From Paecilomyces variotii (Eukaryota), in assembly GCA_004022145.1 (NCBI GenBank), contig RCNU01000016.1: DNA of 64,000 nt; one strand, given 5' to 3'. The position numbers and the translations under genes were made by a program. This document shows positions 21,836 through 64,000 of this stretch, one piece after another. The notes beneath the pieces are model-generated. The model was not told the DNA's origin. It searched no databases and worked only from the letters and a program-made list of their open reading frames with translations. The stretch's first letter is position 1; each line of letters begins with the position of its first letter.

Positions 21836-22732
21836 AATTAGAGCTAAATATAAAGGGTATTAAAATATTAAGTAAAAATAAGGGAGAAAGGAAAATTAGA
21901 AGCTAAGATTAAAGCTAAAGTTAAAGAAAGAAATAAAAAGTAATAAAAAAATAAATAAAATAGCTAAAGAAGATTACTACTATAAATAAAAAAAAATAAA
22001 TATATCTCTTAAATTAGTAAAAATAATAAATATAATATAGGGCAAAAATATATATTAATAATAAGAAAAAGGAAGAACTGCTAAATATAAAGAAGAGCTT
22101 AGTAAGTATAAAAGGAAAGTAAAAATTTAAAAAGAATAAAAAATTATTAAATAAAAACTATTTATTAAAAAATAGAAGAATTTCTTATTATTATTTTTAT
22201 TACTATTCCTTTAAAAAAATATAAAAAAAAATACTAATCTTTTTAGTATTAGTTAAAATAAAAGAACTTCTAGCTCCTTAATATTACTAGGTCTAGAGGT
22301 ATAAATAGCTTAAGCATTTAAAAACGCAAGACTACTAATAGTGCAGCTAATCTAGGTTATATTAGCTCTATAAATATTAATACCTAGAAATCTTAGGGTA
22401 CTATATTTTAAAGGGGATAATATTACTTATTACTTAAGGCTTTTTAAAAGGCTATATAAAGTAAATTAACTCCTAGAAGAAGAAAAAACTAAATAATTTA
22501 TAGACTATTATAGCCTATTAATATTATTATAGATAAATACTTAATCTAAATATAAAAAAAAGAACTACTTAAAACTAGCAGAGGTAATTAAATAAGAGTA
22601 TATTTACTATAATAAATATTAAAGAAAATATAATATCTAATAGCTAAAAAGGTTTAAAAATATAAAATATAATAGCTTTAAGGACTTAAAAAAATATAAT
22701 TAAGAATATTAAGCTATATTAGAAGCGCTAAT

Positions 22733-38977: not shown

Positions 38978-39321
38978 TATAATAGGGAGAATTAGTGCAA
39001 AGAATATAATTAGTTAAGAGGTTATATACTTTTACTTAAAGTCTTTAAAAAGTCTATAAATAAAGTAGGAGAGGAGAAAAAAAAATAAGAAGAAGATAAT
39101 ACCTTTTAATTATTTAGAATAAAATAATTAGCTTTTCCTTTCTATTATTATTTAGTATTAGTTTAGTATTAGATTATTATTAGTTTACTATATTAGTCTA
39201 TAGCTAGAGCTTCTCCTTTAGCTCTACTCTAAGCTCTAAAGCCGAATAACCTTTCTCTTCTTTCTTAATACTTACTCGCTTAAAGACTTTATGCTAAGTT
39301 TTAATATATCTTCCTATAATA
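38978..39321 (+). repeat. A1 3' LTR
   Basis: Preceded by the PPT, followed by TSD ATAC. Confidence 0.92.
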
Positions 39322-42300
39322 ATACTAGTTATTACCTATATTATAGAGGGCCTTTAGGGTATAAAGATTAGCAACCTCTAGAATACTAAATAGCGGTTAC
39401 TTATTAAGTATATAATTAAGGTAAAGGCGGATATTATAAAAGCTAGTATAAAAATATTTATCTAGTATATCTAGACCTGCTAGTATAGCTAATATATTAG
39501 AGATAAACCTAGCAATTTTATAGGCAGATATAACTAGATCGAACTATTAACTACTACTATCTAGGGCAATAATATATACTTACGCATTTAACTAAAGGAA
39601 ATCTAAAGAGAGAATTCTTATAATATTTTTAGCGCGGCGAAATAATATATAAAATAGATTTAACTTATAAATACCGCAGTCTAATTATTTTATAATAACT
39701 ATAGCTTATTAATATAAGGTTAAATTATTTTAAGTATAGATCTTATAGGCGGAAGAAGAATTAAAGAAGTAAAGGCTAATATAAGTAGGGTTAGCACCTA
39801 TAAACAGAAGATATATATTAAAATATAATATAATAACGCAGGGCTTATATCTTACTAGCTAGAGGCCCTTAATAGTAGTATATAGTTCTATTAATCTAAA
39901 AGATATAATTTAACTTATTAAGGCCTAAATAGTTATCCTAGTTATAGCTAATAAAAGTAAATACTAAAGAATAGTTTAATTAGCAAATATAGAATTAAAA
40001 TAGCTTTAAATTAATATTATTTATACTAAAGTAATAATAAAGTTTAGTATTTAAAGAAGCTAGAATAAGGTCTAAATATATAGAGCCCTTTCTACAGCAT
40101 ATATTAAAAAATATATTATATAAAATTATAATCTTATAATGCTAATAAAGAGTACTATAAAAGGAATAAACCTAATTTATTTACCCTAGATCTAATATAT
40201 TCTATTCCCTAGTATAAGAAGAAAAGGCAATAGGAATATCTTATTTATGCTAATACTACTTATAGCAGGCACTATAATAATAATACTGTAATAGGGAGGA
40301 TTAATATAAAGAATATAATTAGTTAAGAGGTTATATACTTTTACTTAAAGTCTTTAAAAGATCTATAAGTAAAGCAGGAGAGAAAAGAGAGAATACCCTT
40401 TTAGTTATTCAAAATAAAATAATTAGCCTTTCCTTTTTATTATTATTTAGTATTAGTTTAGCATTAGATTATTATTAGTTTACTATATTAGTTTATAGCT
40501 AAAACTTCTCCTCTAGCTCTATTTTAAGCTTTAAAGCTAAATACCCTTCTCTTTCTTCTTAATACCTACTCACTTAAAGACTCTATATTAAGTCTTAATA
40601 TATCTTCCTACAATAAATTAGAGCTAAATGTAGGGAGTATTAAAATATTAAATAGAAATAAGGGAGAAAAGAGAACTAGAAGCTAAGGTTAAGACTAAAG
40701 CTAAAAAAAGGGATAAAAAATAATAAAAAGATAAGCAAAATAGCTAAGGAAGATTACTATTATAAATAAAAAAAGATAAATATATCTCTTAGATTAGCAA
40801 AGATAGTAAATATAATATAAAGTAAAAATGCGCATTAATAATAAGAGAAAGAAAAGACTACTAAATATAAAAAAGAGCTTAGTAAATATAAAAGAAAAGT
40901 AAAAATTTAGAAGGAATAGAAAATTACTAAGCAAGAATTATTTATTAAAAAGTAGAAGAATTTCTTATTATTATCTTTATTACTATTCCTTTAAAAAAAT
41001 ATAGAGAAAAGCACTAATCTTTTTAGCATTAGTTAAGATAAAAGAACTCCTAGCTCCTTAATATTGCTGGGTCTAAAGATATAAACAGCTTAAGCATTTA
41101 AAAATATAGGATTACTAATAGCGCAGCTAATCTAAGTTATATTAACTCTGCAGATACTAATATTTAAAAATCCTAGGGTATTATATTTTAAAGGAGATAA
41201 TATTACTTATTACCTAAGGCTTTTTAAAAGGTTATATAAGGTAAATTAACTCCTAAAAGAAGAAAAAACTAAATAGTTAATAGACTATTATAGCCTATTA
41301 GTATTATTATAAATAAGTATTTAACCTAAATATAAAGAAAAGAACTACTTAAAATTGGCAGAAGCGATTAAATAAAAATATACTTACTATAATAAGCACT
41401 AAAGGAAATATAATATCTAATAGCTAAAAAGGTTTAAAAATATAAAATATAATAGCTCTAAGGATTTAAGAGAATATAACTAAGAATATTAAGCTATATT
41501 AAAAGCACTAGTAACTTTAAGTAAGTTAAGTTAATACTTATAAAGAGTTTAATATTTTTAAAGACTTTTAAAGAAGCTTAAGCAATAAATAGTTTAAGAG
41601 TTAAATATAGACTATTATATTCTATCTATTATTAAATATACTAATTTCTATAAGAAGATAGTAAATAGGGTAAGAATAATTAAAACCCTTTACTACCTTA
41701 ATAATAGCGAACTAAAGAAAGATTAAGATATAGCAGCTTTAATAAAGGAGAAGGTAATTAAAGAAGATAATATATAACTTCTTATTAAACCTAATAGAAC
41801 CTACCCAGATAAGAATAAGAGTAAGACTAAATAATAGAGTATTAAAGTAAAGTTAATAAAGTAATTATAAATTAATTAATTAATAAAAAAGTTTAAGAAG
41901 TTAAAACTATATAATATATAATATATAGGAAGGCCTAATAGTAGCATGCCTAATACTAGCATAAATATATAAGCTAGGGCGCCTTTAAGATTTAACCCGA
42001 CTAGAAGATTTAAAATATCTCTAAACTTATATAATTTCTGCTAGGCTTTTAATTATATTTAATCCTATTACTTAGATTTAAAAAGCCTCCTAAATTAGAA
42101 GCTTATCTATTAAGGAAAAAACTATAAACTTTACTTTAAGCTAGAAGGATAGAATAGAGAAGTTATTTATCTTATATAGGGGAATATATTATAAAAGGAG
42201 ATTATTAAACAGAGACTAAAGGAAGAGTAAAGGAATATTAGCTTAATTAAGTATAATATCCAGTCAATTATACTGGGACAGCCTAAGGATAATTTAAGCT

Positions 42301-42949
42301 CTAAGAAAGAAGCCGGGAATATTATAGAAAATTATTACTCTATTAATATAATAGGATTAAATAAGCCCTAAAGAATAAAAAAAAGGTAAAGCAGGACTAA
42401 ATAACTATATAAAAAAAAGCTGCAGAAAGTAATTAAATAAGAATAAAGATTTCTTTTAGTTAAAATAAACTAATTCGGCAATTATTAGCTTCTAAGTATA
42501 ACTAAGAAAATAAAAATAATTAAAGAGAAAATAAAGGATATGCCTAAGTAAAATAAGGATAAAAAAATTATTAAGATAAAAGAGAAGTAGAAGTTAAAAA
42601 GGTTTAAAATTATAAATAAGCTAAAAGAGACTATTAATATAATAGGGGTTATAAACTAGATATTAAATACTAGAGTTTAGATATTAATTTAGGACCTTAT
42701 TAGTCTATCTCCTAATATAACTAGGCGAAGCCGTAGAGATATAGGAGGTAAAAAGGTTAATTACTCTACTAGAGAGATATTGCTTACTAAGTACTGCTAA
42801 AGCAGTTTAATAGGCAGTCTAATACTACTGCAGCTGCAGCTATAATAAAGCTATATTTATAATAAGATACCCCCCTCCTAAATAAAAGAAACAGTATCCG
42901 CGCTATAATATAATTAGATATAATTTATTAATTATAGCTATTCTATTTT

Positions 42950-44190
42950 TTATTTAAGAAAACCTTTTTAGCACTTAAAAGCTCTTTAATATTATTTTCT
43001 ATAGTCTTAGCAGGTTATATAATATTAGTTATAAATTTATTCTGCTAAAAAACTAGCTATTTTTACTTCCTCTATTACTATTCCTATTAGTAATATTTAT
43101 ATTAATAAATATTAAGCTGGGCCTAGTAGCCTTTAAGGAAGCCTTAATAAAGCTATCTAGTAAGGTTAATAAGGCTATTATATATATAGTACTAAGGGAA
43201 GAAGATAATATTATTATATTTTACTAGTTAATAATTCTTATTTATTAGATAATAGAGTTAGTTTTTTTATTATTATAATAAGCTTAGCGGAACTATTATA
43301 TATAATAAGACTAATAGCTCTCTCTAGTAAAGCTATTATTTATTTCTTAAGAATCTTTCCTCTATTTTATTTATTAGGACTTCTACTGCAGCTATAAGTA
43401 AATTTCTTAGGTCTAAGAGAATTGGGCGCCTAGGGCTTAATTTTTAAATAAGTATAGTAGCTATAAAGATAAAGTATAACTCTAGTTATAAAAACGCCTA
43501 ATATCTGCCTATATAGACTATATTATCTTAGCGGTCTTATATTACCCCTATAATAGCTAAGTTACCTTATCTTTAGGGTTATAGGTTCTTAAACTATTCT
43601 CTGCTATTTATATTAAGCTGCCTTTATTTATTATTTAGATGTCTCTATATATATTATCTCTCTATTTATTCTTCCTTTTTATTAGGGCTTATATTATTTA
43701 TAGTATTATTAATATTATCCTCTAATATTAAGTTATTAGTATTACTCTTTAATATTAGGTTAATAGTTAGAGGTTATAGCCTATAATAGATTATTAGTTA
43801 GGCTAAGTATATATTAGGGCTATTACTAGGGCTTAAATCTAAATTTTTATTTATAGGATTTTTACTAATATTAAGTTCTCCTACTATTATAATATAGCGA
43901 TATTCTTTCTTAAAGATATATTAATAATATGCTTTAATCTGCTAATAAAATTATAGAATATTATTTAACTATATTAGTATTACTATTATAGCGCGTATTA
44001 AGCATATTAATGCTAAGTATCTTATTAAGTCCAGGAATTATTCTTTCTGTCTGGCCTTATAGTCTTATAGTATTTCTTTTATTTAAATATTATAATAAAG
44101 TCTTAATCTCTCTTATAAGGTAGATTATTCTACTAGCTATATGTTTAATTACGCGACTATAATATAGCCTCTGTCCTTATTATTAGGTAT
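42950..44190 (-). pseudogene. C1 putative extra sense ORF (~410 codons) between the chromodomain and the 3' LTR
   Basis: Minus-strand frame with TAA/TAG stops reading MPDDEDRGHIVVAQ... to ...CVTCQDC...*; at least one frameshift is required. Confidence 0.4.
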
Positions 44191-47100
44191 AAAAATGCTT
44201 ATTAATATGTTAATATTCGATAATAATACAGAATAAGTAGTAGTTTATGCTAAATAAGGGAGATTAAGCTAACGCTCTGCTAGAGTTAGCTATAGGTATA
44301 ATATAAGGGTAAAATAGGTAAAGTATTGCTAGTATTAGCTAGGTAAGCTAATAACCCCTTTTTTAGCAGTAAATATACAGAATTACTAGTAACTTTATCT
44401 TTATATTCTTTTATTAGCTCTAGCGTGTCTTTAAGATTATTAATATTATACTATATATTATATTCTAGCCCCTAGCCCTTTTATTAGACTAAGTATTCTA
44501 TAATAATATATTAGTAATACTAGCGGACGCGCTTATCTATAAGCTTCTTAATTTTATAGGTCCTAGTATTATCTTCTTTTATATATAGTGCTGGCAGTAG
44601 TTATAGCTATCTGTTAAAGGGGTCGTCTCTTAGTAAGGCCGGCTCTAAGTATACTACTAAGAATATATTATATACTCTCTAGTATAGTAATAGCTTTAGC
44701 TTATATACTAGTTTTCCTATATATTAAATTACTTTAAAAGATCTAATATATTATTATAAAAGCTTTTTCCTTAATACCTCTATTGCTAGTATTAAGTAGC
44801 TTTTATAAAGATATAGATAGACCTAGTTACTAGGCGCGAAGGTAATATAAAGATATTGCCGGTTATAGTATTGCTTAGCCGATATAGCTACTATCTTTAT
44901 AGCTTCTTTTATATTAATCTTATATATAAAGCTCTATTCTAGTTCTATATCGTATATAAGATCTATAGATATAAGTAACTTAATACTATATATTAGCTAA
45001 TGCGGTATATGCCCTATAGATATATTTTTATTGCTATTAAAGGCTTCTTAAAGCTATAGTAGCGCTAAGAGCTAATCTGTTAGAGTATCTAATATATTGA
45101 GGAAGTATCTAAGAGCTATCTCTACTTACTAGTTTATATACTCTAATTACTTATCTATTTATAGGTAAAATACTATTAAAAATAATAGCTAGATATCTAG
45201 GTATTTAAAAAGTTCTTTTTATAAGTTAGATAGAAACTTAGGGTTTCTATTAGAGATAATTTTCTATAGTAAACCCTAGTCCTTAATATATAGATAATTT
45301 AGCAGAGCTGCTGCCTAATTAGCTATAGTCTAAGTAGCTTTTTTTAGAATAAATATTATTCTCTTAGTAAACTTATATATTATTAATATAGCTTAATTAA
45401 GGCTATTCCTTATCTTAAGCAGGCCTATAATAAAATTAATAGTTAGTATATTAAATAAGATTAGTAATATTATAATAGGCTATATAGACTTAAAGGGCTA
45501 ATATTGCTATATCTAATTTACTATATATTTAGGGCAGTAAGCAATATATTCTTATATTAGCTTAGATATCTTATAAATAGCTAAACTATTTAGTCTATCT
45601 AGTATCTTATTAACTCTAGAATAGTTAATTTAGTTATAGGCGAGCTATAGTATCTCTAGGACTATTAATTATAGAATGCATAAATATTAATATTTATTAT
45701 ACTTATTAACTAAGTATAAAAGATTATCTTCTATCTTATATAGCAGTATTACCTTTAACTTATTCTATAGGTTATCTAATATTTAATTTTATTTAGAGTC
45801 TGTTTAATAGCCCCTTACTAATTTCTCTTTAAACCTAGGGCTTATCTTAACTAAAGAGATATAATAAATATCTGTCTTATTATTAATATTAGTAATAAAG
45901 ATATCTGCGTCTTTAATATTCTCTAACAGGGGGGTATATAGCTCTATTATAGCTAACAGTAAATGCGATAATATATCTAGTACTATATTAGTTTTGCTGG
46001 GCTTATAGATAAGGTTTAAATTAAATTATTAGATATATTATACTATAAGGACTAGGTATAAGTTAATCTGCTTTATTAAACTAGATTTTAATATATTTTA
46101 TTTAGCTATTACTAGAGTAGCGCTGTAATCTATAAATATTATAATAGTTAACTTTAATGCCTTAATAAGGTAGTATATTTTCTTAAGTATTTATACTAAG
46201 TATGCGACCTTTAGTTCTATTAGCTAATATCTTATTTCTGCAGAGTTTAGCTGTCTTAATAGGAATAGAATTAGCTATACTTTTAACCTATTTAATATTA
46301 TCTTAGCTAGTAGGCTAGCTGCTGAGAGATAATACTTATCTGCTAATATCTTATCGCGTAAGTAGTATATTATTATACTAAGACTGCGTCTTAATATATT
46401 TACCCCGGAGCTGCTTATTATATTAAAGTTAATATAAAATAATCTATCTAGCAAGAAGTAAGCTAGAAAGAATAGGTCTTAAAAATATTATTTAATTTCC
46501 TAGAATAACTATAGCTCTTATTTAATTAAAAGGTTTACTTAAGTATTAGTTATAAATTTTTAGTATAGTTTATCCTTAATAAGATTAAGATATAATAATA
46601 ATATTTTGCAGTCTTATAAAGGATCTATAATAATTATATATCTTAAGATATACTAGCGGAACTATCCTATAAGAATAAGAAAATATTTAAGGTTTTTTAA
46701 GATAGCAGAGAAAGGTAAGTCTATTATAGCCTTTGTTTTCTCCTCTAAATTAGCTATATTAAAGGTATTAACCTAATAACCTAATAGTATTACTAAGGGA
46801 AACCTAATAAAGGATTTTTTAGGATTTAGAATAATATTAAGCTCTTATATTATAGAGAATAATATATGCAGGTATTACTTATAATTATTTAATATCTTTA
46901 ATATTATAATTAGATTATTTATATAGATATAAATAAACTTCTAGAACTTCTATAAGTAATAATTTATAATTTATTAGATATAGGCAGGCGTATTATAAAA
47001 TCCTATTATAGCTATATTAAAAACCTCTTAGCCCTAATAGCTAATTACTGCTAGTTATAATTAATAGGGTAGGAATACTCTCTACTAATAAAAAAAAGAA

Positions 47101-50100
47101 ATCGCGTTATAAACAGAGATAAATAGCTTCCTTATTATTATTATTAAGATTTTATCCTATAGTAAAATAAGATAGATATTAGGTTCTGTCTCTTAGTTTA
47201 ATGCGCGAATATCTACTATAATATATTCTTTTTATATTTATTAGCTATTCTTTTCTACTGTTTTCTAGATAATAAAGACTGGGTATTTAGTAAATATATA
47301 GCTATTAGCCTATTCTATATAACCTAGGTTATAAAGTTTATTAAATATATTATCTATAACCTTTTAATCTGCTAGTTTTAATAAGTAAACCTTAGATTAA
47401 TATAAGAGCTAGGCTTCCTAATCTTCCTTTAATAGTATTTATATCTATTAATCTTCTAGTATATTAATAAAGCTATAATTATCCTATATATTATATAATT
47501 TAATAATATATTATAGCTAATTAGCAGTATCTTTATCTCTATAGATAGTAATACCTTTTACTATAACTTACTCTAGGCTTAGCTTATATATTATTTCTAG
47601 AGTTAGTCTGTTATATTCTTTTTATAGAGTCTTTATTAGGGGCGCTATTATAGAGTTAACTATAAGAGTATTTATTCTATTTAATTTACTAAGTATACCT
47701 AATTATATTTTTTATAGAATCGCCTATAGCTATTCTAAGAAGTTAAATGCTTAGATAAATATTATCTTTATATTAACTATATAAGTAAATAGCGCAACGC
47801 GATTATAGCATAGATTAAAGAGGTAGTCTCTATTATTAACTAAGTTACCTTTTACTTTAACTAACAGCTGTATATTAGATTTTAGCAGTATTATTACTCT
47901 CTAAGCTAAATAAATAGATTAGAGTATATAGTACCCTAGCTTTGCTATAATTTTTATTAGTATTATTATTTTTTAGCAGGTATTAATAATTGCTATACTA
48001 GTATCTAAATTAAGTATAAACTTATATAGTATAAGAATATTATTATCTATAAGAATATTTACTCTTAGCCTATTAATTAAATACGCTTCTATTTTTAGTC
48101 TAGCCCTAACCTCTTAGCTATTAAGAGTAGCAGGCAGGTTAACTAAAAGTTAAATAAATTAAGTAAATAGTATAGCTATGCTACTAATACCCCTAACTAT
48201 AACTTTTAATATATCTTATATTAATAAGTATAGAGCTTATTATTATAAGAACTATCTATTAATAATTATTATAAAATAACTGCTATTTAAGCAAATAGTA
48301 ATATATTTTTAAGAGTCCGCTATATATACTAAAACCTTAGCATAATACTATCCTTTAAAGGAGTATCTAGTGCTTATTTATAGCTGCATTAGGGCTATAG
48401 AGTATATTATCTAAGGTATCTTATCTTTAGTTATTGTAGGTATTTATAGTATTATTATCCCTTTACTATACTTAAATTATATACTCTAAAGGTATTAATA
48501 TAGTTTATTATTTAATTTAAACTTATATAAGTATATATAGTATTCTTAGGCAAGGGCTTTTAGCTAAATATAGTATATAAACTAGTTATAGCTATTATCT
48601 CCTATATAGTCTACTATATCCTCTATATATTTAATACCCTTATCTGGCCTATTATTAAATCTAGTATCTCTGTATTCTGTATAATATATGCCTTAGTAAA
48701 ACCTGTCTATAAAAGAACTAGTTTAACTGCTATTAATATTTATTAAATATTATAATATAGATAGCAGATCTCCTGCTCCTAACTTATTATTAATATATAT
48801 ATTATATACTTATTAGAGAATAGCATTATCTTAGTTTAGTTAGTCTTAATTTAGCATAAATAACTATTAGGCCCTATTATAGTTTTATAAGAATGCTTAT
48901 TAAGTAGTAATACCTTAGTTTAACTAGTTATAGTTTTATATAAATGGCGATCTAAAAGGTATAGAAAATCTACTTTCTCTACTTCCTTTATTAATAAATT
49001 ATCTTATTTAATCTTGAGAAATATTAGCTGCGGGCCTTATATCTAAGAATTATAGCTATAGCTATAGCCTTAGGTTAAGTTATCTTAAATTATTATAGCA
49101 ATATATTTAGTACAGCAGCGCCTATATATAGCCTTAATTACTATATTTATAGTTACTATATTAATTATATTATCTTAACTGCTGATTATTCTTTAAATTA
49201 GCTTAGTCCTATTATATTATATAGGCTTTATTTACTAATTCTATAAATTATATTAATAATATATTCTTATTAGAATAGATAAGGTCTTTCTATATATATA
49301 GAGAGAACTTTATCTATACTAAATAAAGCTATATATAAGTTATATTAGGTCTTATCGCCTTATATAGCTAGATAACTATCTATATAAAATTTTATAGTAT
49401 AATTCTATTCTGTATATCGGCTATAGAATATAATATTTTTTTTAACTCGCGTATTATAGTGCCTATATTAACCTTAAATTACTTTAATAATAGCGGAATT
49501 TAAGCTTCCTTAACAGGATATACTTATAAACTATCTTATTTGAATTTAGAAAGCTCTGCTATATACTATTATAATGCTTATCCCTTAAAGGATATATAGA
49601 GCTATAGCCGGACTAACTTATTACCCTTAATTAAAATAAGATCCCGGATATATTTAGTAAATAAATAAATATCTCTATAAAATATCTAGCTATTAATAGT
49701 TACTATTAGCCCTATTCCTATATACTTATAGTCCTTTAAATCTAGTTAAAAGAACCCGAGTTCTTCCTGCTTCTAGGAGACTAAGCCGTTTAAGTATAAT
49801 AATAGTATTATTATAGTATTACTAGCAGTATTCTAGTTGTAATTATAATTATTGCCTAAAGTAGAGCAGTTTTTATTAAACTATATATTATTCTACTATT
49901 TATTAAGTTTATATAGGATACCCTGATTTTATTCCGCTAGCTTAATTATAGTCTTAGTTATTATCTTGTTTAATATAGCTATTATCTTTATTATCTATAT
50001 AAGTAAAGTATTAGTACTTATTAAATCGGGATTGACTTTTATTAATAACCCCGCCCTAGTATTATTATCTATATCTTTATCTTTAATTAATAGCAGTATA

Positions 50101-50591
50101 ATATTATATATAGGTCTTTTATTTTCTATACTGTTTATTCTTCTATCTTATTATTAATTAATTATAGTATTATCTTTACCTTATTTAACTCCTATATTAA
50201 GCGGTAGTTGTCCTATATTAAAGATTAAAGAACAGAAATTAGTTCTTAAATATAATAGCTTATTAAACTATATCTATAAGAAGTTTAAAGAGATATTAGA
50301 GATATTTATAGGATATTTAGGTATATAGTATTTTTAGTCTAAGAATACTAGGGTATTCTTTTAAGAGTTAGAGAAGGCCCTTATTTATATTATATATAAT
50401 AATAATATCTTAGAACGGCTATAGCCTAATAGATTAATTAGTTTTTATATTACTTCTTCCCCTAATAATACTCTTTACTCTTACTGCTAGAATAGGAAGG
50501 TAGAATTATTAGCTAGTGCCTTTATTACCCTGTAAAAGCTACTTATAGCCTAGTTTAAAGTATTTTAGTTAATTACCCAGTCTGCAGGAAA

Positions 50592-51087
50592 TAGAGTGGT
50601 TACAGTAAACCGAAAAAACCGAACCGAACCGAACCGAACCGCCTATAGTTCGGTTTGGTTCGCTTCCTAGTAAACCGCGGTGCGAGTCTACTAGAACCGA
50701 ACCGAACCGGTAGTTTTTAGTTTAAACCATTTGAACCGTAATTTTAACCTCGTATTTAAATTACACTATGTAATTTATCGATACTTATATCGGAGGTATA
50801 AAATTACTATAGTATTTAGTATATATAATAAAAATATATTAGAAATCGGTAAATTACGGTATTGTAATTTTCGCTTATTTATCCTAATATAGCTAGAGCA
50901 TAGTTATATAACCGGATCTAACTTAGGTTAGTAACTAATTATGCCGATCCGGTTTTTTTTGGTTTTAAACCGAACTACTAGTATACGGTTCGGTTCAGGT
51001 ACGGTTTATCTGCCCCGAACCGAAAACCGCTACGGGCGGTTTAACCCCCCCCCTGAACCGAACCGAACCGCCTATATAACTACTCTA
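50592..51087. mobile_element. hAT-family MITE (496 bp) in the C1 5' leader
   Basis: 8-bp TSD GCAGGAAA at 50584-50591 and 51088-51095; 11-bp TIRs TAGAGTGGTTA / TAACTACTCTA (one transition); subterminal AACCG/CGGTT arrays at both ends; no transposase. Confidence 0.9.
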
Positions 51088-54000
51088 GCAGGAAATAAAA
51101 AATTTCCTGCCTATAGGGTAGCATTACCTCTAGGTATAACTAAGTTAACTATAAGATAAGCTAATATTAAACTTCCTTTTAGTACTAGGTAAAATAAAAT
51201 AATAAAGTTAATTAAAAATAAGATAACTTAAGGAAGCTAATTTCTATAGTTTAACTGGCTTACCTAGAAAGCTATAAGCTAAAAGGCAGTTAATATAACT
51301 TAAAAAGGGATTATAAGCAGGTATTAGGAGGGAGGGTTTAGATTATTAAAGAATATAGGCATATAGTATTATAAGAATACTAGTATTATTCTTATTAATA
51401 TATAGTAAATTCTTCTGTAAGATAGTAGGATTAGTTAATTAAAGTCTAATAATCTTAAAATCCTAAAGCTTAAAATAGAGATAGTAGAGATACCCTAATT
51501 AATTAAAACATGCTATTATTTATAACTAGGCAAAGCTATAAAAATATAGGAGGTAAGAAGGTTAATTGCTCTATTAAAGGGATACTGCTTGCTAAGTACT
51601 ACTAAGGCGATTTAATAGGCGGTTTAATACTGCTACAGCCGCAGCTATAGCAGAGCTATATTTATAACACTTAATTTATATAAGGCCTTATTTACCCTAT
51701 AACCGCAGTAGGTAATAATAAAGGCGATATTCTATAATATTAAAGGAGTATAGTTTAATACCTCTATATTAAATATAGAGTATATAGTAAACAGTGCGGA
51801 TTAGTGCACTTATATATCTTTATAACTTAAGCCTCTTAATAAAAATAAGATACTATACGCGGCCGTAACTTTAAAGTTACTAATTAGAATTAATAGTTAT
51901 AAGAAGGCGTAAAATATTATAGTAAATAGTGGAGCTGAAATTAATATAATATATAAAGATATAATAAATTATTATAAACTTATTATAAGCTAGAAATTTA
52001 GAGATAATATAATATTAGTAAATAGCAGGCAGACCCCTTTTATAAGTCTCTATAAAGAGATACTTATATAAGTAGAATTTTTCTATTATAAGATCCCTTT
52101 CTTTATAATAAATAATAAGATTAACTATAATTATATTCTAGGATAGCCTTTTAAGTATTAAATATATTTGCAGTATATTACTTTATTAGATAAAATAATA
52201 GAGAGTATAATTTACTCTATAGACTAAAAGAATTAAGTTATTATTTAGGTATTTTTAATAAATAACCTAAGAAATAAATTAAGAGAAGAGGTATTATGCG
52301 ATCTATTATCTCAGGTATAAAAATTATGAAACTAAAGCTAGAAAGGAATAATAAGCACTAGACTAAGAATAGAGAAAGCCTATAGGAGCTATACTTAATA
52401 AATAATATTAGCTTTAAAGCGAGCGAGGAAATTAAAAGCAAAGGAATAGAGATATTTAAACCTACTAAATTAAATAAAGGAGTTAGAAAATTATAGGGGT
52501 ATAAACTATTTAGAAGGTATAATCTTTTTACTATAAAAATAAAATATTTTATTAATATATAGTATAAAAAGAAATATAAAAAGATTTATCTAGTAAATAT
52601 ATTAAACAGACTTATAGCGGCTTTAGGGGAATTATTAAGATAAAAAGAAATTATTAAGGAATGCTATTATAAGAACCCCTAAAAAAATATAAAAGAAATA
52701 TATAGAGAATTTACTAAATATATTTAGCTAAAGATATTAGATATTAAGAGAAGAATAAGATTAATGCCGGATTATTTAAAGAATCTTATTATAGGTAATA
52801 ATTTATAGCTAAGAGAGAAAGAATTATTAATAGAGGTGCTTTTTACCTAAAAAGCAGTTTTTGCCTAAACCTTTAAAAAGATTAGATAAATGCGCCTAGA
52901 AATTGCACCTCTAATTATTATTTAAATTATAGATTATAAACTATAGTAGGTAAAGAGCTTCCTAATATTAAAGGCACTTTATAATATAGTATAAGAAATA
53001 GTAAAAGAGAGGATAAATATAAGGATCCTTAAATATAATTAAGGATTCTACTAAAATCTATAATTTCTAATAAAAAAGAAAAGCAGTAAATATTAGCTAA
53101 TTAATATAGCTATAGAAATAAATTAAATAATAATATAAGATATTAATTTACCCTCTTTAATTAATAAGTTCTTAGAAGAGTTTAGTAGAATATTAATATT
53201 AATACTTATAGACTTATTCTCTAGGTATAATTAGTTAGAGTTAGCTAAGGAATTGCAGGACTTAATAGCTTTCTATATATTAAGAATTAGTTTAATTTAT
53301 TAAGCTAAATTATCTTAAAGATAAATAAATATAGTATAAGAGTTTATATAAGAAGTTATATAAATATTAGCAGATAATATTCCTAATATCTGTAATATAT
53401 TTCTAGATAATATATTAATATAAGAACCTAAGACTAATTATAGGGGGAAAGAGATACTGCCGGGAATTAAAAGGTTTATATTTAAATATATCTAGAATAT
53501 CGATAAGGTATTATATAGTCTTAAACTTATAGGTTTAATAATTATTAAAGAGAAATTATAATTTATAATATTAAGAATTAAAATAGTAGGCTATATATAT
53601 AATGCTAAGGGGAAATATCTTAAATCGGCTAAGGTAATTAAGATCTTAAAATAGCTATTTTATTAGAACTTACAGGAAGTAAGAGGATTTCTAGGGATTA
53701 TAGCCTATTACCAGATATAGATTAAAGAATATATTATTAAAGCTAAGCCGATATACTTAATATTAAGGAAGGGATAAGACTTCTTTTAAGGGCCAGAATA
53801 ATAAGAAGTAATAGATACTTTAAAAGTGGCCCTAATAATAATACTAGTACTTAAGCCGATTAATTATAAAAAGAGAGGTATAATTATTATTAATATTAAT
53901 ACTAATAATAGTAAATAAGGGGCTTAACTTATTTAAGAAAAAAAGGAGTTTAATAAGAGACACCCAGCTAGATATAAAAGTAGAGTATAGATATAGGTAG

Positions 54001-56220
54001 AAAGGTAATATAATAAAGAAAAGCTAAAGTATAGGATAATACTAAAAATACTTTATAAATTCTAAGTATATCTTTATAGTATATACTTTTAACTAGAGAT
54101 AGATATAAAAATTTTAATAGCGCAATTAAATAGAATAGCTATAAATCTCCCTAGGTTAATAATTACTTAATAAATTGCTTAGATTTAGTTATTTAACTTT
54201 AATATTATCTATATATTAGGAAAAAAGAATTTAGTTATAAATAGATTATTTTAGAAGCTAATAATAAAGCAAGACCTAGAAAAGACAGAAGATAATAATA
54301 TAGAGGAATTCTTAAATTTATAATTTTATATAATTTATTATACTAGTATATAAGAGATAAAATTAAATAGTATCCCTTAATTAATACTTATATTATATTA
54401 ATTAGAAAAGTCTTTACTAATTATAAAATAGTTATAAACTATAATAAAACTAGATAATATAAATAGAGAATAATATACTAAGTTTAAAAAAGAGGCCCTA
54501 AAGTATATAGTTTAAGATAATATACTTTTTTAGAGAATATAATAAAATTAGCCTTACTATATAATTATTGACAATAAGGAGAAGTAAAAGGAAATTCTCA
54601 CAGCCCTTTATAAAGAATATAAATATTATAAGTATAAAATAACTTATTAAAAGATAGCTAATCGATATTAGTAAAAAGGCCTATATAAATATATTACCAG
54701 ATAGATAAAGATATATAATAAATATTAAAAAGCAGATAAAGAATATATAGAAGAAGCTTTATAGTCGATATTTATTCTATTAGGGAAATTAAAGCTATAC
54801 CTAGATATCTGCAAGATTATACTACCTAGTAAGGGAAAAACTTATATTACTATACTTTAAGATAACTTTAACTAAGTTAAATATAGAGCCCTTAGCAGCC
54901 CTATTTTAAGAGCTATTACTAAATTTTTATAAAAAGACTAGATTTATTATTAGAGAGTAATAGAGACTCTTATTAATAATAAAGGACTAGAGAATAAAGC
55001 CGCAGTTAATATATTAATATAGAAATATAAGATTAACTATATTAAAATCTTATTATATAACCTATAAATAAACAGAGCAGTTAAAGTTATATATAAGTCC
55101 TTTATATATAGTATTAGAAAATTTGCGAAAGGAATAGGGGTAAATTAGGTAAACTACTTACTAGTAGTAATCTAGGCAGATAAAAATATAATTAAGACTT
55201 TTATAGGCTTAATACTATTTAGAGTAATTATAGGATATAATATTATATTACTAATTAAACTAGAAGTACTTACTTAAAAGATTTTAATATAAGATAAGGT
55301 TAAGACTATAGAAGATCTTCTACTTTTTTACATATAATAAATAGAGCTTTAAGATTAGAATATAAAAAAGGCCTAACTTCGTATTTAATATATAAAGAAA
55401 GCTAGTAAAAAGATTTTTAATAATAAAAAATAATTCTGCGAAAAATAACTAATAAAAGAATAGCTTATTCTGCTTTATAATATAAAACTTAAGATATCTT
55501 ACTCTGCAAAACTAGTATACTACTAGCTTAAACTATATAGGATTAAAAAAGTCCTTAAAAAAGAATCCTATAAGCTTAAGAAGTTAGATAATATATTTTT
55601 TAGAGACTTAATTTATAGAAATTGCTTAAAAGGCTATTATTTATAAAAGAATTAAAATAAAATATTAACCGCAAGAGATAATATAATACTTAAGCAAGAA
55701 AATTAGTAATTAAGTAACAATAATAATGATATAGACTAAATACTACCTAGATTAAAATATATAGTTATAGTTCTAGTACTCTCCTTTTAAAAATATTAGC
55801 TTAAAAAGAAAAAAGTAGAAAGCTAATAATAAAGCAAAATAAAAAGCTAGTTTAAAAGGAGAAGAAATAGAAAAATAATAATAAAATAAGTATTAGTACT
55901 ATAATAGAAAAAAAAGGAGGGTAAACTTAAAATAAAGGCGTCTTTTTTAAGGAAGAGGAAGGATTTAAAGATACCTAATAATAATTAAAAAAGAAGAAAA
56001 AGAGAGATAACTAAAAAATATATAATATTAATTTAAATACCTTAAAAAGTCTATAAATAAAGCTAAAAACAGAAAATATTAAATAAAGAATATAAGTAAT
56101 AAATAAAGAATCCTTACCTTATTATAAAAACCTTACTTTTTATATTATATAATACTATAGCGGAAGTAACTAGAGACCAAATTAAGCTAAACTTAACCCT
56201 ATCTTATCTTTTAAGTATAT

Positions 56221-59158
56221 CTTTTTACTTAAAAACTATTTTAAAGAGTCGCTCTATAAAAATATATATTAAAAATAGAAGAAAATACACTAAAAATATA
56301 AAATATTATCTGTTAGGATAAAGCTCTTTAACTTAGAATATATATATATACTATAGTTAGCAAAATTTATAAGCTTATAAAGGAGATAATAAATAAGGCT
56401 AATAATAAAAAAGAGAAAGTTTAGTTTATAAGCAATATAGCAATAATTATTTTAAATTTTTAAAGTAGATATAATAAAGCAGCTAGTAATTTTTATAATT
56501 TTCTAAACTAATAGGAGCTATTAGAAGAAATAAGAAAGAAAAAAGTACTAGCTATTAATAAGCTAAAAGAATTAAAAATATAAGTAGAAAAGAACTATAA
56601 ATATATTAATAAAGATTATTATAAAGCTATAGAGAAATAGGGCTAGGAGATTATAGATTAAATCTTATTAATTATTAGAAAATTATATTAAATCTTAATA
56701 GCTATAAGAGGATTAGTTTTTAATACTAAAGATTAGAGAATAGCAGCTATATATTTAGCAAGAATATAGGTTAATAGACTTTATAATATTAAGAGATAAG
56801 GAATATTAACTAAAAAGAGCCTTTAACTAACTAATATTAGAAAGGTAAGAGATATCTTAAAAAAAGCCCTTAGTAAAGAAGGATTAATTTTTTAAAAACC
56901 TATTAATAAAGAGCTATAAGAGGTTAAAATAAAAGTAAAGGAAAATAATCTTCTAGAGGAGATTATAAGAGAAGAGGAAGAATATTAAATAGAAGATTTA
57001 AATAAGAGCTTATTAATAGATCTAATATTAGATAAAAAAGAAAAAAGCATAGAGAAGGAGAAAAAAAGGAAGAAGAGGATTAAGAGTCTTAAGAAGCTAA
57101 AAGGAGAAAAGAAGCTTAAAACTTAAGATAAGGGAAAATAGCTAGAAAAAGGATATAAATATAAGGTCAGTATATCTATATTAATAAAAAAGGCTATTAT
57201 TAACTTAAAAGATAAAAAAATATTAGAACTTTTAAGGAAAAAAAGAATTAAACCTACTGCTATATACTAAATTTATATTAAAAAAATATAAAATATAATA
57301 AGACTAAGGAGTACAGAAGATAATATCCTTAGAAAAAGATTAAAAATGCTTATAAATAATAATAATAATCTTAAATCTTAGAATATTAATATAGACTACT
57401 AGAAATAGTTTTAATAGAGATAAAGATTTAATATTAACCTTAAGGATTATTGCTGCCTAGATAAGGGAAAAATTAAAGTATAATCCTAGTTAAGTAGACT
57501 AAATATAAATGCTAAGGAGGTTAGAGAAGTCTTATAGTAGGTTAATTCTAAGAAGATTAACTTAATCTATAAGCCTTATATATAATTATTGGCTAATATA
57601 ATTAGTATAAGAGAGGATATATCTATAAAAGAAGCTAGAGAAGTATTAAAAATAATTAGAAATATAAAGTTAGCAGTAATAAAGCAGTAAAAGAAAAGAT
57701 TATTTAAAGTAATAACCTATCTTTATAAAAGTTTACTTAAAGAAATTAAATAGTTTATAAGTAAAATTTTTAAAAATAAATAGGTAATAGAATCTCTTAG
57801 CAGAGCCTTAAAAATTAATATAAAGATCTCTTTTTCCGCAGTAAACCTAGAAGACCCCTTTATTAAAAAAAAAAACTAGATATTTAAAAGATATATAAAA
57901 TGCTAGAACTATATAGTTTAAAGATAATATAGAGGCTAAGTAAATGCTAGATATACCTAGTAATAGCCAGGTTAAAAGAAAAATAAAGAGTCCTATTCTA
58001 AGAAGTCCTAAAAGTATAAAAGATAGAGATAATATAGAAGTTAAAAAATTATTATCTAAAGACCTTCTCCCTAAGAAATCCCTAATATTAGAGATAGTTT
58101 AACTATTTAAAGATCTTAGATTAATTAATATAGATATTTCTAGTAATATACCTAGCAGCTTATATTATAAAGCCTAAGATAATCTATATAGGGCTAAAGA
58201 GTATCTTAAATCTAAATATAGGGATAGAAAATATTTTAACCTAAGTAAAGAAGACTTTACCTTAAATAAGATATAGGACTAATATATTTAGTTAGATATT
58301 ATAATAAGAGAGGATTTTAACTATTAAGAAGTAAATAGGGTTTTCTAGATTATACTTTTTAAAAAGAAACTAATAAAAGGAATACTATAATATACTATTA
58401 TAAAAGCAAAAATAGCCCTTTATTATAAGAAGAAGGGTAAAAGATTAATAAAGCTTAAGAATTTATCTAGAAATATTCTCTAGAAGATTATTGCGCAAGA
58501 TATCTAGATTTATTTAATCTAGTTAGTACTATATAATTATAATAAATATAGGCTGCAGGTCTAGTATCTTAAGAAATATAAGTTAAAAGTATTAAATATA
58601 GAGACTACTATCTCTAAGGGAAAAATAAGCTAGAGCTTTGCAATCTTAGGGACTAGACTAATTACTAAAGATAAATCTAAGAAAATTATAGGCCTAAGAG
58701 ATATTATATTTAGGCAGAAAGAAGTAACCTTTATTAGCAATCTATATTAGCTAATACTAGAAAATTAGGGAATAAATCTTAATAATATCTGCTATTTTAA
58801 TTATAAAAAGTAAGATAAAATAAGATCTAACTAAGGAGAATCCGGGCCTTTTAATATCTAGGTAAATAAAATTATAGCTATAGGCAGAGTAATACTTAGT
58901 TAGTTAAACTAAGATTATTTAAAAGTTAAAGCAGAGCTATACTTTATATTAAAATAAAATATATTATTAGTTTAAGATTATCTGCAGAGAAAAGGAACTT
59001 AGCTTTATAAGTTAAGGGTTTTAAGGTATATATAATATTAGAAACTAGAGCGTTCTTGCTTTAAAAACAATTTATAATATTAGAAGGAGGAGATAGTATA
59101 GACTATAATAACTAAAAAAGGTAAATAAAAATATCTGCTCTTAGAGGAGGAGAAACTA
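56221..59158 (+). pseudogene. A2 extra 3' ORF (~950 codons), uncharacterised
   Basis: Single frame, apart from one poly-A slip at ~57870, with RIP-type stops. Start and stop approximate. Confidence 0.6.
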
Positions 59159-61893
59159 TATAATAGAGAGAATTAATATAAAGAATATAATTAGTTAAGA
59201 GGTTATATACTTTTGCTTAAAGTCTTTAAAAGGTCTATAAGTAAAGTAAGAGAGAAGGAAGAGAATATCCTTTCAGTTATTTAGAATAAAATAATTAGCC
59301 TTTCCTTTATATTATTATTTAGTATTAGTTCAGCATTAGATTATTATTAGTTTATTATATTAGTTTATAGTTAGAGCTTCTCCTCTAGCTCTACTCTAAG
59401 CTCCGAAGCTAAATACCTTTCTCTTTTTTCTTAATACCTACTCGCTTAAAGACTTTATGCTAAGTCTTAATATATCTTCCTACAATAATACTTACGCTAG
59501 TTCTTAAGAAGAGATATATAATATATATAATAGATTAAGTTAGATAAAGAGCTTAAATCTATATTTATACTTTATACCTATACCTATAATTAAGCCCTAT
59601 AATATTCTAACTAGCACTAGTAATAATTAGCATAAATACTATAAGATAGAGGTATTACTGCCTAGTATATATTATAGCTCTATAAGACCTATAAGGTTAC
59701 TAATAGTATAGGTATAGAATTAGCTAAGCAGCGACTAGTACAGTAATTAGCGCAGCAGTTTAAATACTTATTATATTTACTAGAAGTAGATATTTAATTA
59801 CTATAAGAAATATAATACTTATAATCTATAAATAGCTATAATATACTATTATAAATAGCTACTTAATAATCTATATACTTAATATATTAGTAAAGAATAG
59901 ATCTATAGATAGGCTCTATATATTACCTATAGTAAGTATTAGGGGCAAGCGCAAGCGTAAACGCGGAGATAAGTAAAGAAGCAAATATCTATAATAAATA
60001 CTAAAGACTTAAGATAAATATATACTGTAAAGGTACTGGTAGCTACTGTTAATATATAAAATAGCCTAGCGCTATAATAAATTCTAAAAAATTATAGCAT
60101 TATAAAGTAAAAGTAGAAATAAATTCTATAAGCGAAGTATTCCCTATAATAGAAGTAAGATATATATATATCTATAAAGTAAACTAGATATTAAGATAAT
60201 AGTTAGCACCTAATCCCTATAGTTAAAGAGGGTAATAGACTATAGTTATAGCAGTAAATAATACCCGGCATTTAAAAGAAGCTATTAGTAATACTAAATA
60301 GAGATATAAAGTATACAGTCGCAGAAGATTAGAAGAGTAGCATATAGCAGAGATAAAAAGTTAAAAATAAAAAGTATTTAGCGCGTGCTGCTAAAGGCAA
60401 TATAGAAAGTTTAAGTAAAAAAGCAGTTTTAATAAAGAATAGGAGCCTATGCGCAGGCGCGGGAAGCACCTAAAATAAAAGGTAGTATACCTAAGATAAT
60501 AAGCGGTTAGCTTAAAACTGCAAGCGGTATAGAATAGCAACAGCAGAACAGATATTAAACTATGCATTTTTAAGGAATCGCCTATATATATATATAATTA
60601 TTTTCTTATTTATTTTATTATTTTTTTTATTATACTATAATTTTAAAGATTTTAAATCTTTAAATAAATCTTTAAACTTATATTATAAACTATAGTAAAC
60701 TATAGCTTAAAGTAATTATATAAGCAGTTTAATTTAATTTAAAGAAAAGTTAAATTACTTATAGTAAGTTTTAATTTAAAGTAAAAAAACTATACTTAAA
60801 TTAAACTATACTTTAGCAGTTTAATTTAAAACTAAAAAAATTAAAATATTTATTAAGATTAAGTATTAAATAGTTAAAAAGAATAAGTTTAAATAAATTT
60901 CTTAGACTATTATATTAGCTTAAGTAAGTATAATACTTAAGAAAAGAGAATATTAGCTTATAGTATAGATATAAAGCTATATTATTAATATATATTTTTT
61001 AAGATAATTAAATAGTAAAAAGAGAAGCTTAAGAATAAATTCTTTTAAATCTTTAATTTAACTATAATAAGATTATAATAATTATATAACTTTTAATTTA
61101 ATTATAGTAAGAATATAATAATTATATAAAGTCTTAACTATTATTTTATAATACTCTTTTTTAATTTAAACTTATTATATTAATTAATTTTAACTAATTT
61201 AAAAATTTTAAGAAGTTTATCTTTAATAATAGCTTAATAAAGCTATTTACTATTATATTCTATATTTTAATAAACTTTATATTAATCTTATTTCTTTAAT
61301 ATAAGTCTTATATATAGTAATATATAATATTAATATATTTTAACCTTTTATAAGTATAAGTATCTTTAATTAATAATAGTAATACTTAATTATCTTTAAA
61401 GACTTTAACTAAAGAGCTTATAATAAAGGCTTACTTCTCTCTTATTATTAGTTTAAACTTATTTAAATTAATATAGTATTTATATATTATATCTCTTAAA
61501 AGAAGGGCTAACTATTAAAATTATTTTATAGTTTAATATATAGCTATATATTTTACTTCTATAGTTAAGGTTATAATAGATTTTTATTTTTTACTTAATT
61601 AGCTTATTAAGTAATTAGTTAAAATAAAAATATTCCTTAAGATTAATATTTAGTTAGACTTATTTATTATATAATCTAAATTTAAGTACTTAATAAGTTA
61701 TTAGTCTTTATTCGCATTAAACTTAAGATTAAAATATATACTTAATTAAAGGTATCTTATTAAAGACTTTAATACTTTAAAGTATCTTTTAAATAGATTT
61801 AATAAATATTAGCTTAATTTACTAACTATAAATATAATATTTAGTCTTATTAAAATTATTAAGTAAATAAGAATATTAATAATTCTTTAATAC

Positions 61894-62403
61894 TATAAGA
61901 AATAGAGGTTCTTAGAGGTTATTAATAAATTATTTTATTAGCGATTATAGTAAAAGAAGTAATAGCTTTATATACTTAGCTTAGAGAAGAGTTTATTAAT
62001 AAGATAAAGGGTTAACTATTATAATAAAGAGTCTAACTAATATAGAAAAAGGTTTATATTAAAGAGATTTAATAATAAAGAGTTTATATAAGTAAGAAAA
62101 TAATAGAGTATATATTATATTAAAATAAATTACTAGCTTTTAATAAAATAGTAATCTAGAGCTTATTTATATTTTAAACCTTAAGTATTTCTTAGCTTTA
62201 TTTTATATAAATTCTAAAAGCAGAGAATATAGGGTTTAATTAATTACCTTAATATTATATTTAGATTTAAGGCTTTACTATAGTTCTATAAGCTTATACC
62301 TTAATAAAGAGCTAGAGGTATAATAGTATTCTCTCTCTTTTTAAAGGCTTATTCTTAAGCTATTATAAAGTTATTATATTAAATATAAAGTATAGCTTTA
62401 TAG
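61894..62403 (-). mobile_element. Family B copy B2: 3' LTR (61894-62325) plus PPT-adjacent sequence, more heavily RIP-mutated than B1
   Basis: Aligns by eye with 22733-23242, same 432-bp LTR length; interrupted at 62404 by A3. Confidence 0.85.
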
Positions 62404-64000
62404 TATAGTAGGGAGAATTAGTATAAAGAATATAATTAGTTAAGAGATTATATGCTTTTACTTAAAGTCTTTAAAAGGTCTATAAATAAAATAAGAGAGG
62501 AGGAGGAGAATACCCTTTTAGTTATTTAGAATAAAATAATTAGCTTTTCCTTTCTATTATTATTCGGTATTAGTTTAATATTAGATTATTATTAGTTTAT
62601 TATATCAGTTTATAGCTAGAACTTCTTCTCTAGCTCTACTCTAAGCTCTAAAGTTAAATACCCTTCTCTTTCTTCTTAATACCTACTTGTTTAAAGACTC
62701 TATACTAAGTCTTAATATATCTTCTTATAACAAATTAGAGCTAAATATAGGGGGTATTAAAATATTAAATAAAAATAAGGGAGAAAGAAAAATTAGAAGC
62801 TAAGGTTAAGGCTAAAGCTAAAAAAAGGGGTAAAAAATAATAGAAAGATAAGTAAAATAGCTAAAAAAGATTACTATTATAAATAAAAAAAGATAAATAT
62901 ATTTCTTAGATTAGTAGAGATAGCAAATATAATATAGGGCAAAAATATATATTAATAATAAGAGAAAGAAAGGACTGCTAAATATAAGGAAGAGCTTAAT
63001 AAATATAAAAGAGAAGTAGAAATTTAGAAGAAATAAGAAATTATTAAGCAAGAACTATTTATTAAAAAATAGAAGAATTTCTTACTATTATCTTTATTAT
63101 TATTCCTTTAAAAAAATATAGAGAAAAGTATTAATCTTTTTAGTATTAGTTAAGATAGAAGGACTTTTAACTCTTTAATATTATTAGGTCTAGAGGTATA
63201 AACAGCTTAGGCATTTAAAAATATAGGATTATTAATAGCGCAGCTAATCTAGGTTATATTAGCTTTATAGATACTAATGCCTAAAAATCCTAGGGTATTA
63301 TATTTTAAAGAGAATAATATTACTTATTATCTAAGACTTTTTAAGAGGCTATATAAGGCAAATTAACTCTTAGAAAAAGAAAAAACTAAATGGTTTATAG
63401 ATTATTATAGCCTATTAATATTATTATAAATAAGTACTTAATCTAAATATAAAGAAAAGAATTATCTAAAATTAGTAAAAATAATTAAATAAGAGTATAT
63501 TTATTATAATAAGTACTAAAGAAAATATAATATCTAATAGCTAAAAAGGTTTAAAAATATAAAATATAATAGCTCTAAGAACTTAAAAGAGTATAATTAA
63601 GAATATTAAGCTATATTAAAAGCGCTAGTAACTTTAAATAAGTTAAGTCAATATTTATAGAAAGTTTAATATCTTTAAAGATTTTTAAAAAAGCTTAAAT
63701 AATAAATAGTTTAAGAGTTAAATATAGACTACTATACTTTATTTACTATTAAATATATTAATTTCTATAAGGAGATAATAGATAGAGTAAGAATAACTAA
63801 AACCCTTTACTACCTTAATAGCAATAAACTAGAGAAAGATTAAGATATAATAGCTTTAATAAAGGAGAAGGTAATTAAAGAAGATAATATATAACTTCTT
63901 ATTAAATTTAATAGAATTTACCTAAATAAGAATAAGAGTAGGACTAAATAATAAAGTATTAAAGTAAAGTTAATAAAATAATTATAGATTAATTAGTTAA
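62404..64000 (+). mobile_element. Family A copy A3 (5' LTR 62404-62732 plus gag), truncated by the window edge
   Basis: 329-bp LTR of the A2 type followed by the same leader and gag sequence as 40616 onward. Confidence 0.9.

Follow-up and report, generated by a model that had tools for sequence, protein, structure and literature searches.

Remains of a long extra open reading frame between pol and the 3' long terminal repeat of a Ty3/Gypsy retrotransposon in Paecilomyces variotii

What did a fungal Ty3/Gypsy retrotransposon encode in the DNA between its pol gene and its 3' long terminal repeat (LTR)? The question arises from a 64,000-nucleotide stretch of contig RCNU01000016.1 of Paecilomyces variotii (assembly GCA_004022145.1), hereafter called the window, which holds three copies of a Ty3/Gypsy LTR element of ~10.3 kb, designated Family A. 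A first-pass annotation of positions 56221-59158, made from the letters alone, had placed a third open reading frame (ORF) of ~950 codons in the env position of this element and had suspected a degenerate dioxygenase-like module in it. Our analyses revealed the wreck of an extra ORF of ~870 codons between pol and the polypurine tract and 3' LTR, on the strand of pol, in copies 1 and 2; the proposed position therefore stands for both. The best overall explanation is probably that these are Ty3/Gypsy copies destroyed by repeat-induced point mutation (RIP) that carry an element-encoded accessory ORF of an orphan protein family, and we hold the structural claims about the extra ORF with high confidence.

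Five direct LTRs of ~331 to 345 bp (mean column identity, 85%) are present in the three copies, and they start with TG or, where RIPped, with TA; no primer-binding site was recognized after the 5' LTR. When the copy 2 pol translation, with stops read as X, was compared with PDB by phmmer, it matched the Ty3 reverse transcriptase/RNase H structure 4OL8 (E = 8.4e-10) and Ty3 Gag-Pol 7Q5B (E = 5.4e-9) over ~375 residues; Pfam matches to RT_RNaseH and RT_RNaseH_2 coincided in position between the copies and were weak (E = 4e-4 to 5.6e-3), below the curated cut-offs. The integrase region after RNase H gave no Pfam match and no PDB sequence match, and integrase-like strings are legible there by eye only. 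The last recognizable pol residues (...LKGYY), judged by eye, end at ~55643 in copy 2 and ~35445 in copy 1. In both copies ~2.9 kb separate pol from the polypurine tract and 3' LTR, positions 38977 and 59158 being the exact last bases before the 3' LTR starts (38978 and 59159), and in both the extra ORF has the same position and strand and adjoins the polypurine tract.

The two long copies (31457-39326 and 51670-59492) are 86.7% identical over 7.9 kb by self-BLAST, and the manner of their divergence is that of RIP. Transitions account for 962 of the 983 substitutions between them, and there are 13 indel events. In the extra-ORF stretch (36040-38977 and 56221-59158) the TpA/ApT index is 1.43 to 1.45 and the (CpA+TpG)/(ApC+GpT) index 0.24 to 0.30, the corresponding values for the gene-bearing 1 to 13 kb of the window being 0.69 and 1.21; both marks of a RIP-mutated repeat, transition-only divergence and shifted dinucleotide indices, are thus found in the Family A copies. 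The differences remaining between copies 1 and 2 lie mostly in ApG/CpT (569) and not in the classical CpA/TpG context (147), which suggests that RIP has saturated the CpA sites in both copies, although a second context preference of RIP in this fungus may be the reason instead. The extra ORF itself is dead in the window, with stops at 6 to 9% of its codons. The P. variotii genome is described as two-part and shaped by RIP, with which the RIPped block of the window agrees (PMC6300479).

In the raw letters the ORF is hidden. No frame stands out over the 2,938 nt, in which ~10% of the codons of every frame are stops (106 to 136 per ~979 codons in the sense frames and 80 to 111 in the antisense frames) and no ORF of 80 amino acids or more occurs. 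Merging copies 1 and 2 by script with G/C kept at transitions, a step that the first-pass annotation had advised, did expose a frame path, and its switches fall at known indels. In copy 1 the position modulo 3 is 1 up to 37422, 0 up to 38233, and 2 up to ~38930, matching the loss of one base at 37423 and the insertion of 8 nt at 38234-38241. Copy 2 keeps one frame from 56500 to 57870 and continues in the +1 frame to ~59110, with its single switch at an A-run near 57870 that has one extra A; other copies, from a genome run of the same organism label, are one base shorter there. Raw stop counts in the path frame, set against the other two sense frames, are 32 versus 68/68, 31 versus 52/64, 27 versus 50/56, 14 versus 38/45, and 20 versus 33/31 over five segments, a depletion that is modest in comparison with shuffled sequences (z = -0.9 to -2.9). 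Stop counts alone do not fix the strand, because they are equally low in the in-register antisense frame (25/32/23/11/19, compared with 32/31/27/14/20 in the sense frame). The strand of the extra ORF is purine-rich, as is that of pol, and this composition by itself lowers the number of stops on the pyrimidine-rich strand. Neither copy favors any frame in the first ~280 nt (56221-56500 and 36040-36320), and support begins at ~56500 and ~36320; the supported length is for this reason ~870 codons, and the figure of ~950 has to be shortened.

The reality of the ORF and its sense strand were settled by a natural homologue that matches the sense translation. A profile made from the window's own C-terminal read-through translations (429 positions, stops as X) was run with hmmsearch against 1.84 billion representative proteins and returned nine at E ≤ 0.001, four at ≤ 1e-10 (8.5e-76, 1.1e-20, 3.8e-17, and 4.1e-15), and one at ≤ 1e-30. 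P0005, which has internal repeats (10 stretches), was treated as spurious, leaving eight relatives; the raw copy 2 translation had found nothing in a word-index protein search. The best match, P0001 (E = 8.5e-76; 261 amino acids), is "hypothetical protein DTO271D3_3571" of Paecilomyces variotii, KAJ9316302.1, and the N-terminal part of the copy 2 ORF (56500-57870) runs on into the portion that it matches. Copy 2 is identical to P0001 at 128 of 207 aligned residues and copy 1 (37428-38233) at 137 of 237; C>T or G>A changes alone can produce 74 of the 79 mismatches in the former and 93 of the 100 in the latter, or 167 of 179 together, against 14% for random residue pairs. All 25 in-frame stops aligned to P0001 (12 in copy 2 and 13 in copy 1) face R, Q, or W. 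The first-pass reading of one frame with RIP-type stops accordingly holds for the frame and for the stops, although each copy has one or two small indels. Because the mismatches are RIP-reachable and the stops face R, Q, or W, the window must contain RIPped copies of a P0001-like gene, and by the same comparison the part of the ORF covered by P0001 was ~97% identical to it before RIP. This near-identity fits P. variotii, or a very close relative, as the likely source of the DNA. In the reverse direction, a hidden Markov model (HMM) built from natural sequences only and run on the six-frame translation of the window matched two places, both on the + strand, at 38243-38779 (E = 1.4e-26) and 58400-58960 (E = 1.1e-28), and no other repeat family of the window.

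The sequence comparisons place the extra ORF in a small orphan family of at least four diverged lineages. That its last blocks belong to an uncharacterized ascomycete family had been guessed correctly: all named members (among them KAJ9305871.1, XP_028482054.1, and XP_028486980.1) are hypothetical proteins of P. variotii, and six of eight clusters whose records were consulted carry that species name. With P0013 to P0016, which were added by a word-index search with the family alignment, all-against-all BLASTP separated P0001; P0002, P0003, P0010, and P0011; P0006, P0007, and P0013 to P0016; and P0004, P0009, and P0012, with P0008 apart at 36 to 48%. Distant fragments of the family are 36 to 48% identical to P0001 (P0002, 48% over 131 amino acids; P0008, 36%), and P0004 and P0007 are 45% identical to each other. 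Among viral contigs, 48 pattern matches yielded no relative. A link to a retroelement would explain these orphan hypothetical proteins of P. variotii.

Conservation within the family sits mainly in two blocks, ...NLSRSILQKIIAQDIRVYLIWLAL.G.GEHR.Q.RY.RG... and ...Y.E...IR.DQGG.G.FD....GVTAIGKA..GQA.WD..EV..ELY...., and in the window the copy 2 stretch 57872-59110 carries the corresponding NLSRxIL.KIIAQDI..YLI.L.L and IR..(Q)GG.GPF....AIG. Upstream of the blocks is a Ser/Glu/Pro-rich stretch (P0001 residues ~1 to 130), and further upstream in the window is a half that is rich in Lys and Glu and has one basic cluster. This half lies outside the reach of every natural homologue; it gave no Pfam match and, in PDB, one match at chance level (E = 0.46). 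The N-terminal strings KKRKKR, CC..., and LLANVIG of the earlier attempt to undo RIP are present in the sequence, where no natural homologue covers them; some of its other guesses were off, such as IQVYLIQLAL, for which the natural relatives read IRVYLIWLAL.

Several alternatives to an ORF that is integral to the element have to be weighed. One is that the 2.9 kb are a passenger, either a host gene that the element took up or a foreign element that had inserted into the founder copy, with no role in retrotransposition. In P. variotii, relatives are annotated as ordinary genes on large contigs (P0006 on 4.5 Mb and P0013 on 799 kb), which would fit such an origin, as would the fact that the family was not seen beyond P. 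variotii and hence is young or fast-evolving. We nevertheless consider a passenger unlikely. The 2.9 kb are not bounded by an LTR, a terminal inverted repeat, or another polypurine tract (when the LTR was compared with the interior by sensitive BLAST, AT-rich noise was all that resulted), and they lie on the strand of pol and reach the polypurine tract. In the genome run, more than 10,000 short contigs map to the element, and their summed depth, a soft measure, is similar for the ORF (~6,900) and pol (~8,200). The same blocks are also kept in several diverged lineages.

A second alternative, that the ORF extended the Pol polyprotein at its C terminus and was not a separate third ORF, draws on the reading frame of copy 1, in which the last pol residues (~35401-35445) and ORF segment 1 (36319-37422) share a frame (position modulo 3 = 1). 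The spacer between them (~870 nt in copy 1) contains stops at the random level in all frames, even after the copies are merged; in copy 2 it takes in the first 280 nt of the stretch originally noted (56221-59158). Since there are three indels inside the spacer, the shared frame may be a matter of chance (1 in 3), and we regard an extended Pol as improbable.

The proposal that the C-terminal blocks are a degenerate PhyH/2-oxoglutarate (2OG)-Fe(II) double-stranded beta-helix dioxygenase, with modified DNA or chromatin as its possible target, is not without precedent: a 2OG-type demethylase domain is reported for plant Ty3/Gypsy elements (PMC9289625). In our analyses this proposal found no support and must be judged very improbable. 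At a Pfam threshold of E ≤ 1, eight natural homologues gave no PhyH/2OG family (best unrelated match, E = 0.064); at E ≤ 5, three more homologues and three window segments gave one chance-level match (AGP; E = 3.9), and the family profile matched none of 177,635 distinct PDB sequences at E ≤ 10. On these comparisons, the extra ORF matches no Pfam family or solved structure. The first-pass annotation had itself seen no HxD...H metal site, and no HxD/E...H iron triad is conserved in the aligned blocks, as far as these are covered by natural homologues; the one well-conserved His, in G(E/D)HR, is followed by L, V, or R and not by D or E, and a second (IHGVT) is Ser in three of six sequences. The AlphaFold2 models, made from alignments of 17 rows (P0013) and 13 rows (P0002), were too poor for a fold search and likewise too poor to speak against the dioxygenase fold, although block 1 is helical in them, at low confidence. 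The ESM Atlas gave no match for P0013, and the best score for P0002, 0.75, was below the useful range.

An envelope-like glycoprotein, as in errantiviruses, is suggested by the location between pol and the 3' LTR and has a negligible probability. A Kyte-Doolittle scan of 10 natural homologues found no clear transmembrane-grade segment, the maximum 19-residue mean being at most 1.3 in nine of them and a borderline 1.82 in P0004; the maximum of 1.96 in the merged N-terminal half falls on a stretch that includes Arg and two stops and is RIP-inflated. Together with the lack of a Pfam match, this agrees with the earlier impression that the product is not env-like. A non-coding spacer or an antisense gene like brtn of Boty, which the openness of the antisense frame would allow, is refuted for the C-terminal half and scarcely credible overall, given the E = 8.5e-76 match of the sense translation with its RIP-consistent changes, the restriction of the natural-only HMM matches to the + strand, and the effect of purine-rich composition on antisense stops.

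An element-encoded accessory ORF thus remains the preferred reading, and a number of observations weigh against it. No fold was obtained, since the AlphaFold2 models had mean predicted local distance difference test (pLDDT) scores of 47.1 (P0013) and 39.8 (P0002). For the N-terminal half of the ORF the evidence consists of stop depletion (z of about -2.4 to -2.9), and the ORF may have been separate from pol or fused to it. The natural homologues are fragments of 65 to 372 amino acids, with no full-length intact copy seen; among the 8,000 best word-sharing candidates that were scored there was no relative longer than 751 amino acids, a weak objection, and a metagenome scan reduced 260 pattern stretches to one relative (L001), a truncated 1.5-kb fragment without informative context. 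Finally, copies 1 and 2 may be one segmental duplicate and not two independent insertions, because their flanking 4-mer may be the same. The letters ...ATAC stand directly left of the 5' LTR in both, and ATAC-like letters stand right of the 3' LTR, although at the sites compared (21489-21493, 39320-39330, 40283-40287, and 59485-59495) they are ambiguous; the shared flank may mean that both copies have one and the same 4-bp target duplication, that the LTR ends are mis-set, or that a whole copy arose by segmental duplication.

If the ORF was a working gene of the element, its protein would have had an N-terminal half rich in Lys and Glu, probably helical and bearing a basic cluster that resembles a nuclear localization signal, followed by a likely disordered Ser/Glu/Pro-rich linker and the conserved C-terminal domain, and it would have been made from a sense transcript downstream of pol, full-length or spliced. 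With low confidence, we take the ORF to be an integral accessory gene encoded by the element that is neither an envelope gene nor an enzyme of a known class. A non-enzymatic accessory function in the cycle of the element is a tentative suggestion, and the likeliest role would then be that of a helper, e.g., in entering the nucleus, binding particles or nucleic acid, or choosing a target. It is conceivable, but doubtful, that a Eurotiales Ty3/Gypsy lineage has long retained the ORF as an accessory gene whose product has a new fold and a nuclear service, such as choosing integration sites or blunting RIP or silencing, and that the stand-alone P. variotii relatives are relics or domesticated copies of the ORF; if so, the ORF would be the first case shown in a fungal LTR retrotransposon of a third gene that lies on the sense strand and is not env.

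Extra genes are rare in LTR retrotransposons and, where understood, mark a change of life-style, as env does for infectivity. Errantiviruses carry env between pol and the 3' LTR, and LTR elements of bdelloid rotifers reportedly have captured third ORFs in that interval (PMC13524379 and PMC5408684). The ORF of Family A occupies the same position and differs in having no membrane anchor, no similarity to a described family, and a fungal host. The orphan proteins of P. variotii are of the same family, KAJ9316302.1 being a non-RIPped counterpart of the middle of the ORF, but they are annotated as short stand-alone genes (65 to 372 amino acids), whereas here the sequence is part of a long ORF in an LTR element. 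From the same likely host comes Tn123, a RIP-affected Tf2-type element of P. variotii, which shares the LTR-gag/pol-polypurine tract-LTR layout and the AT-rich RIPped blocks; by description, it is set apart by its length of 7.1 kb, against ~10.3 kb for Family A with its ~2.9 kb of extra coding DNA after pol (PMC6300479). Boty-like/BcGypsy1 of Botrytis cinerea is likewise a fungal Ty3/Gypsy element with an additional ORF of unknown function beyond gag-pol; this ORF (brtn) is described as antisense, whereas that of Family A, compared by description only, is on the sense strand and has ~870 codons (PMC8365987). Orchid Ty3/Gypsy elements reportedly also acquired a conserved module, an m6A RNA demethylase domain (AlkB-type 2OG dioxygenase) that points to RNA regulation (PMC9289625). 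Unlike these, the ORF of Family A showed no dioxygenase signature of any kind.

LTR retrotransposons with extra ORFs were thus already known, and what appears to be new is this sense-strand ORF and its protein family; a literature search of incomplete coverage, made without Repbase, turned up no account of this family and none of a third ORF on the sense strand in Gypsy elements of fungi. What the window preserves of the gene is a fossil, and the idea of a dioxygenase that works on DNA or chromatin is without support. If a fungal Gypsy family has a conserved gene of ~870 codons after pol, this would nevertheless give a handle on unknown retroelement biology, and P. variotii is a species that can be transformed and in which RIP and crossing are open to laboratory study (PMC6300479). 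The coordinates of the features are collected in Table 1.

Table 1. Positions of Family A copies and their parts in the 64,000-nt window
Feature	Position	Strand	Basis or remark
ORF N-terminal part, copy 2	56500-57870	+	single frame of 457 codons with 32 RIP-type stops; rich in Lys/Glu, basic cluster
ORF C-terminal part, copy 2	57872-59110	+	+1 frame after extra A; P0001 match, E = 8.5e-76
ORF segment 1, copy 1	36319-37422	+	27 stops versus 50/56; 76% identical to copy 2 translation
ORF segment 2, copy 1	37428-38233	+	after missing base 37423; 14 stops versus 38/45
ORF segment 3, copy 1	38243-38930	+	after 8-nt insert 38234-38241; natural-only HMM match
pol, copy 2 (reverse transcriptase and RNase H)	52995-54122	+	PDB and Pfam matches; motifs LDLFS.YN and FLD(D/N)ILI readable
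Spacer from pol to extra ORF, copy 2	55644-56499	+	no stop-depleted frame, even with copies merged
Polypurine tract, copy 2	59143-59155	+	3 nt ahead of 3' LTR; alignment of five LTR ends
Polypurine tract, copy 1	38962-38974		3 nt ahead of 3' LTR; alignment of five LTR ends
3' LTR, copy 2	59159-59489	+	self-BLAST, five-way alignment; ends approximate
3' LTR, copy 1	38978-39322		five-way LTR alignment; ends approximate
5' LTR, copy 1	21493-21836		five-way LTR alignment; ends approximate
5' LTR, copy 2	40287-40617		five-way LTR alignment; ends approximate
5' LTR, copy 3	62404-62734		five-way LTR alignment; ends approximate
Family A copy 1 (A1)	21489-22730 and 30253-39326		interrupted by second LTR element, 22735-30246
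Family A copy 2 (A2)	40283-42716 and 51670-59492		interrupted by ~8.8 kb of other DNA
Family A copy 3	begins at 62400		cut off by window end

Some further observations concern the element and its surroundings. Contigs of two food-fermentation metatranscriptome runs (X19 and X20) span the RIPped element at 51670-59492 end to end; they may stem from DNA carry-over or read-through transcription and are no proof of transcription. An RNA run labelled as being from the same organism as the genome run had next to no contigs on the element. The spacer between pol and the ORF (56043-56063) and the LTR (59225-59246) have a 21-nt motif in common (TTAAAAAGTCTATAAATAAAG-like). Apparent joints in mapped contigs that skip ~3206 nt, from 56063 to 59270, were rejected as an artefact of this shared motif, since one side is only 21 to 22 letters long. 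The possibility that an LTR remnant lies inside the element ahead of the ORF was likewise rejected, BLAST having given AT-rich noise only, at ~62% identity everywhere.

By self-comparison, the window includes a 50-kb block at ~20% GC built of nested repeats, next to ordinary gene pieces at ~51% GC between 1 and 14 kb. The second LTR element nested in copy 1 has 423-bp terminal repeats (22735-23157 and 29824-30246) and gave no match to the extra-ORF family with the natural-only HMM in six frames; LTR pieces related to it lie at 61892-62403. The insert in copy 2 (42716-51670) is RIPped and flanked by a 147-bp direct repeat (42716-42862 and 51521-51667; 84% identity), a length that exceeds any target-site duplication. 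Within the 51% GC part, 858-6102 contains pieces of two genes, which from their translations, read by eye, we take to be a glycoside-hydrolase-like and a 1,4-alpha-glucan branching-enzyme-like gene.

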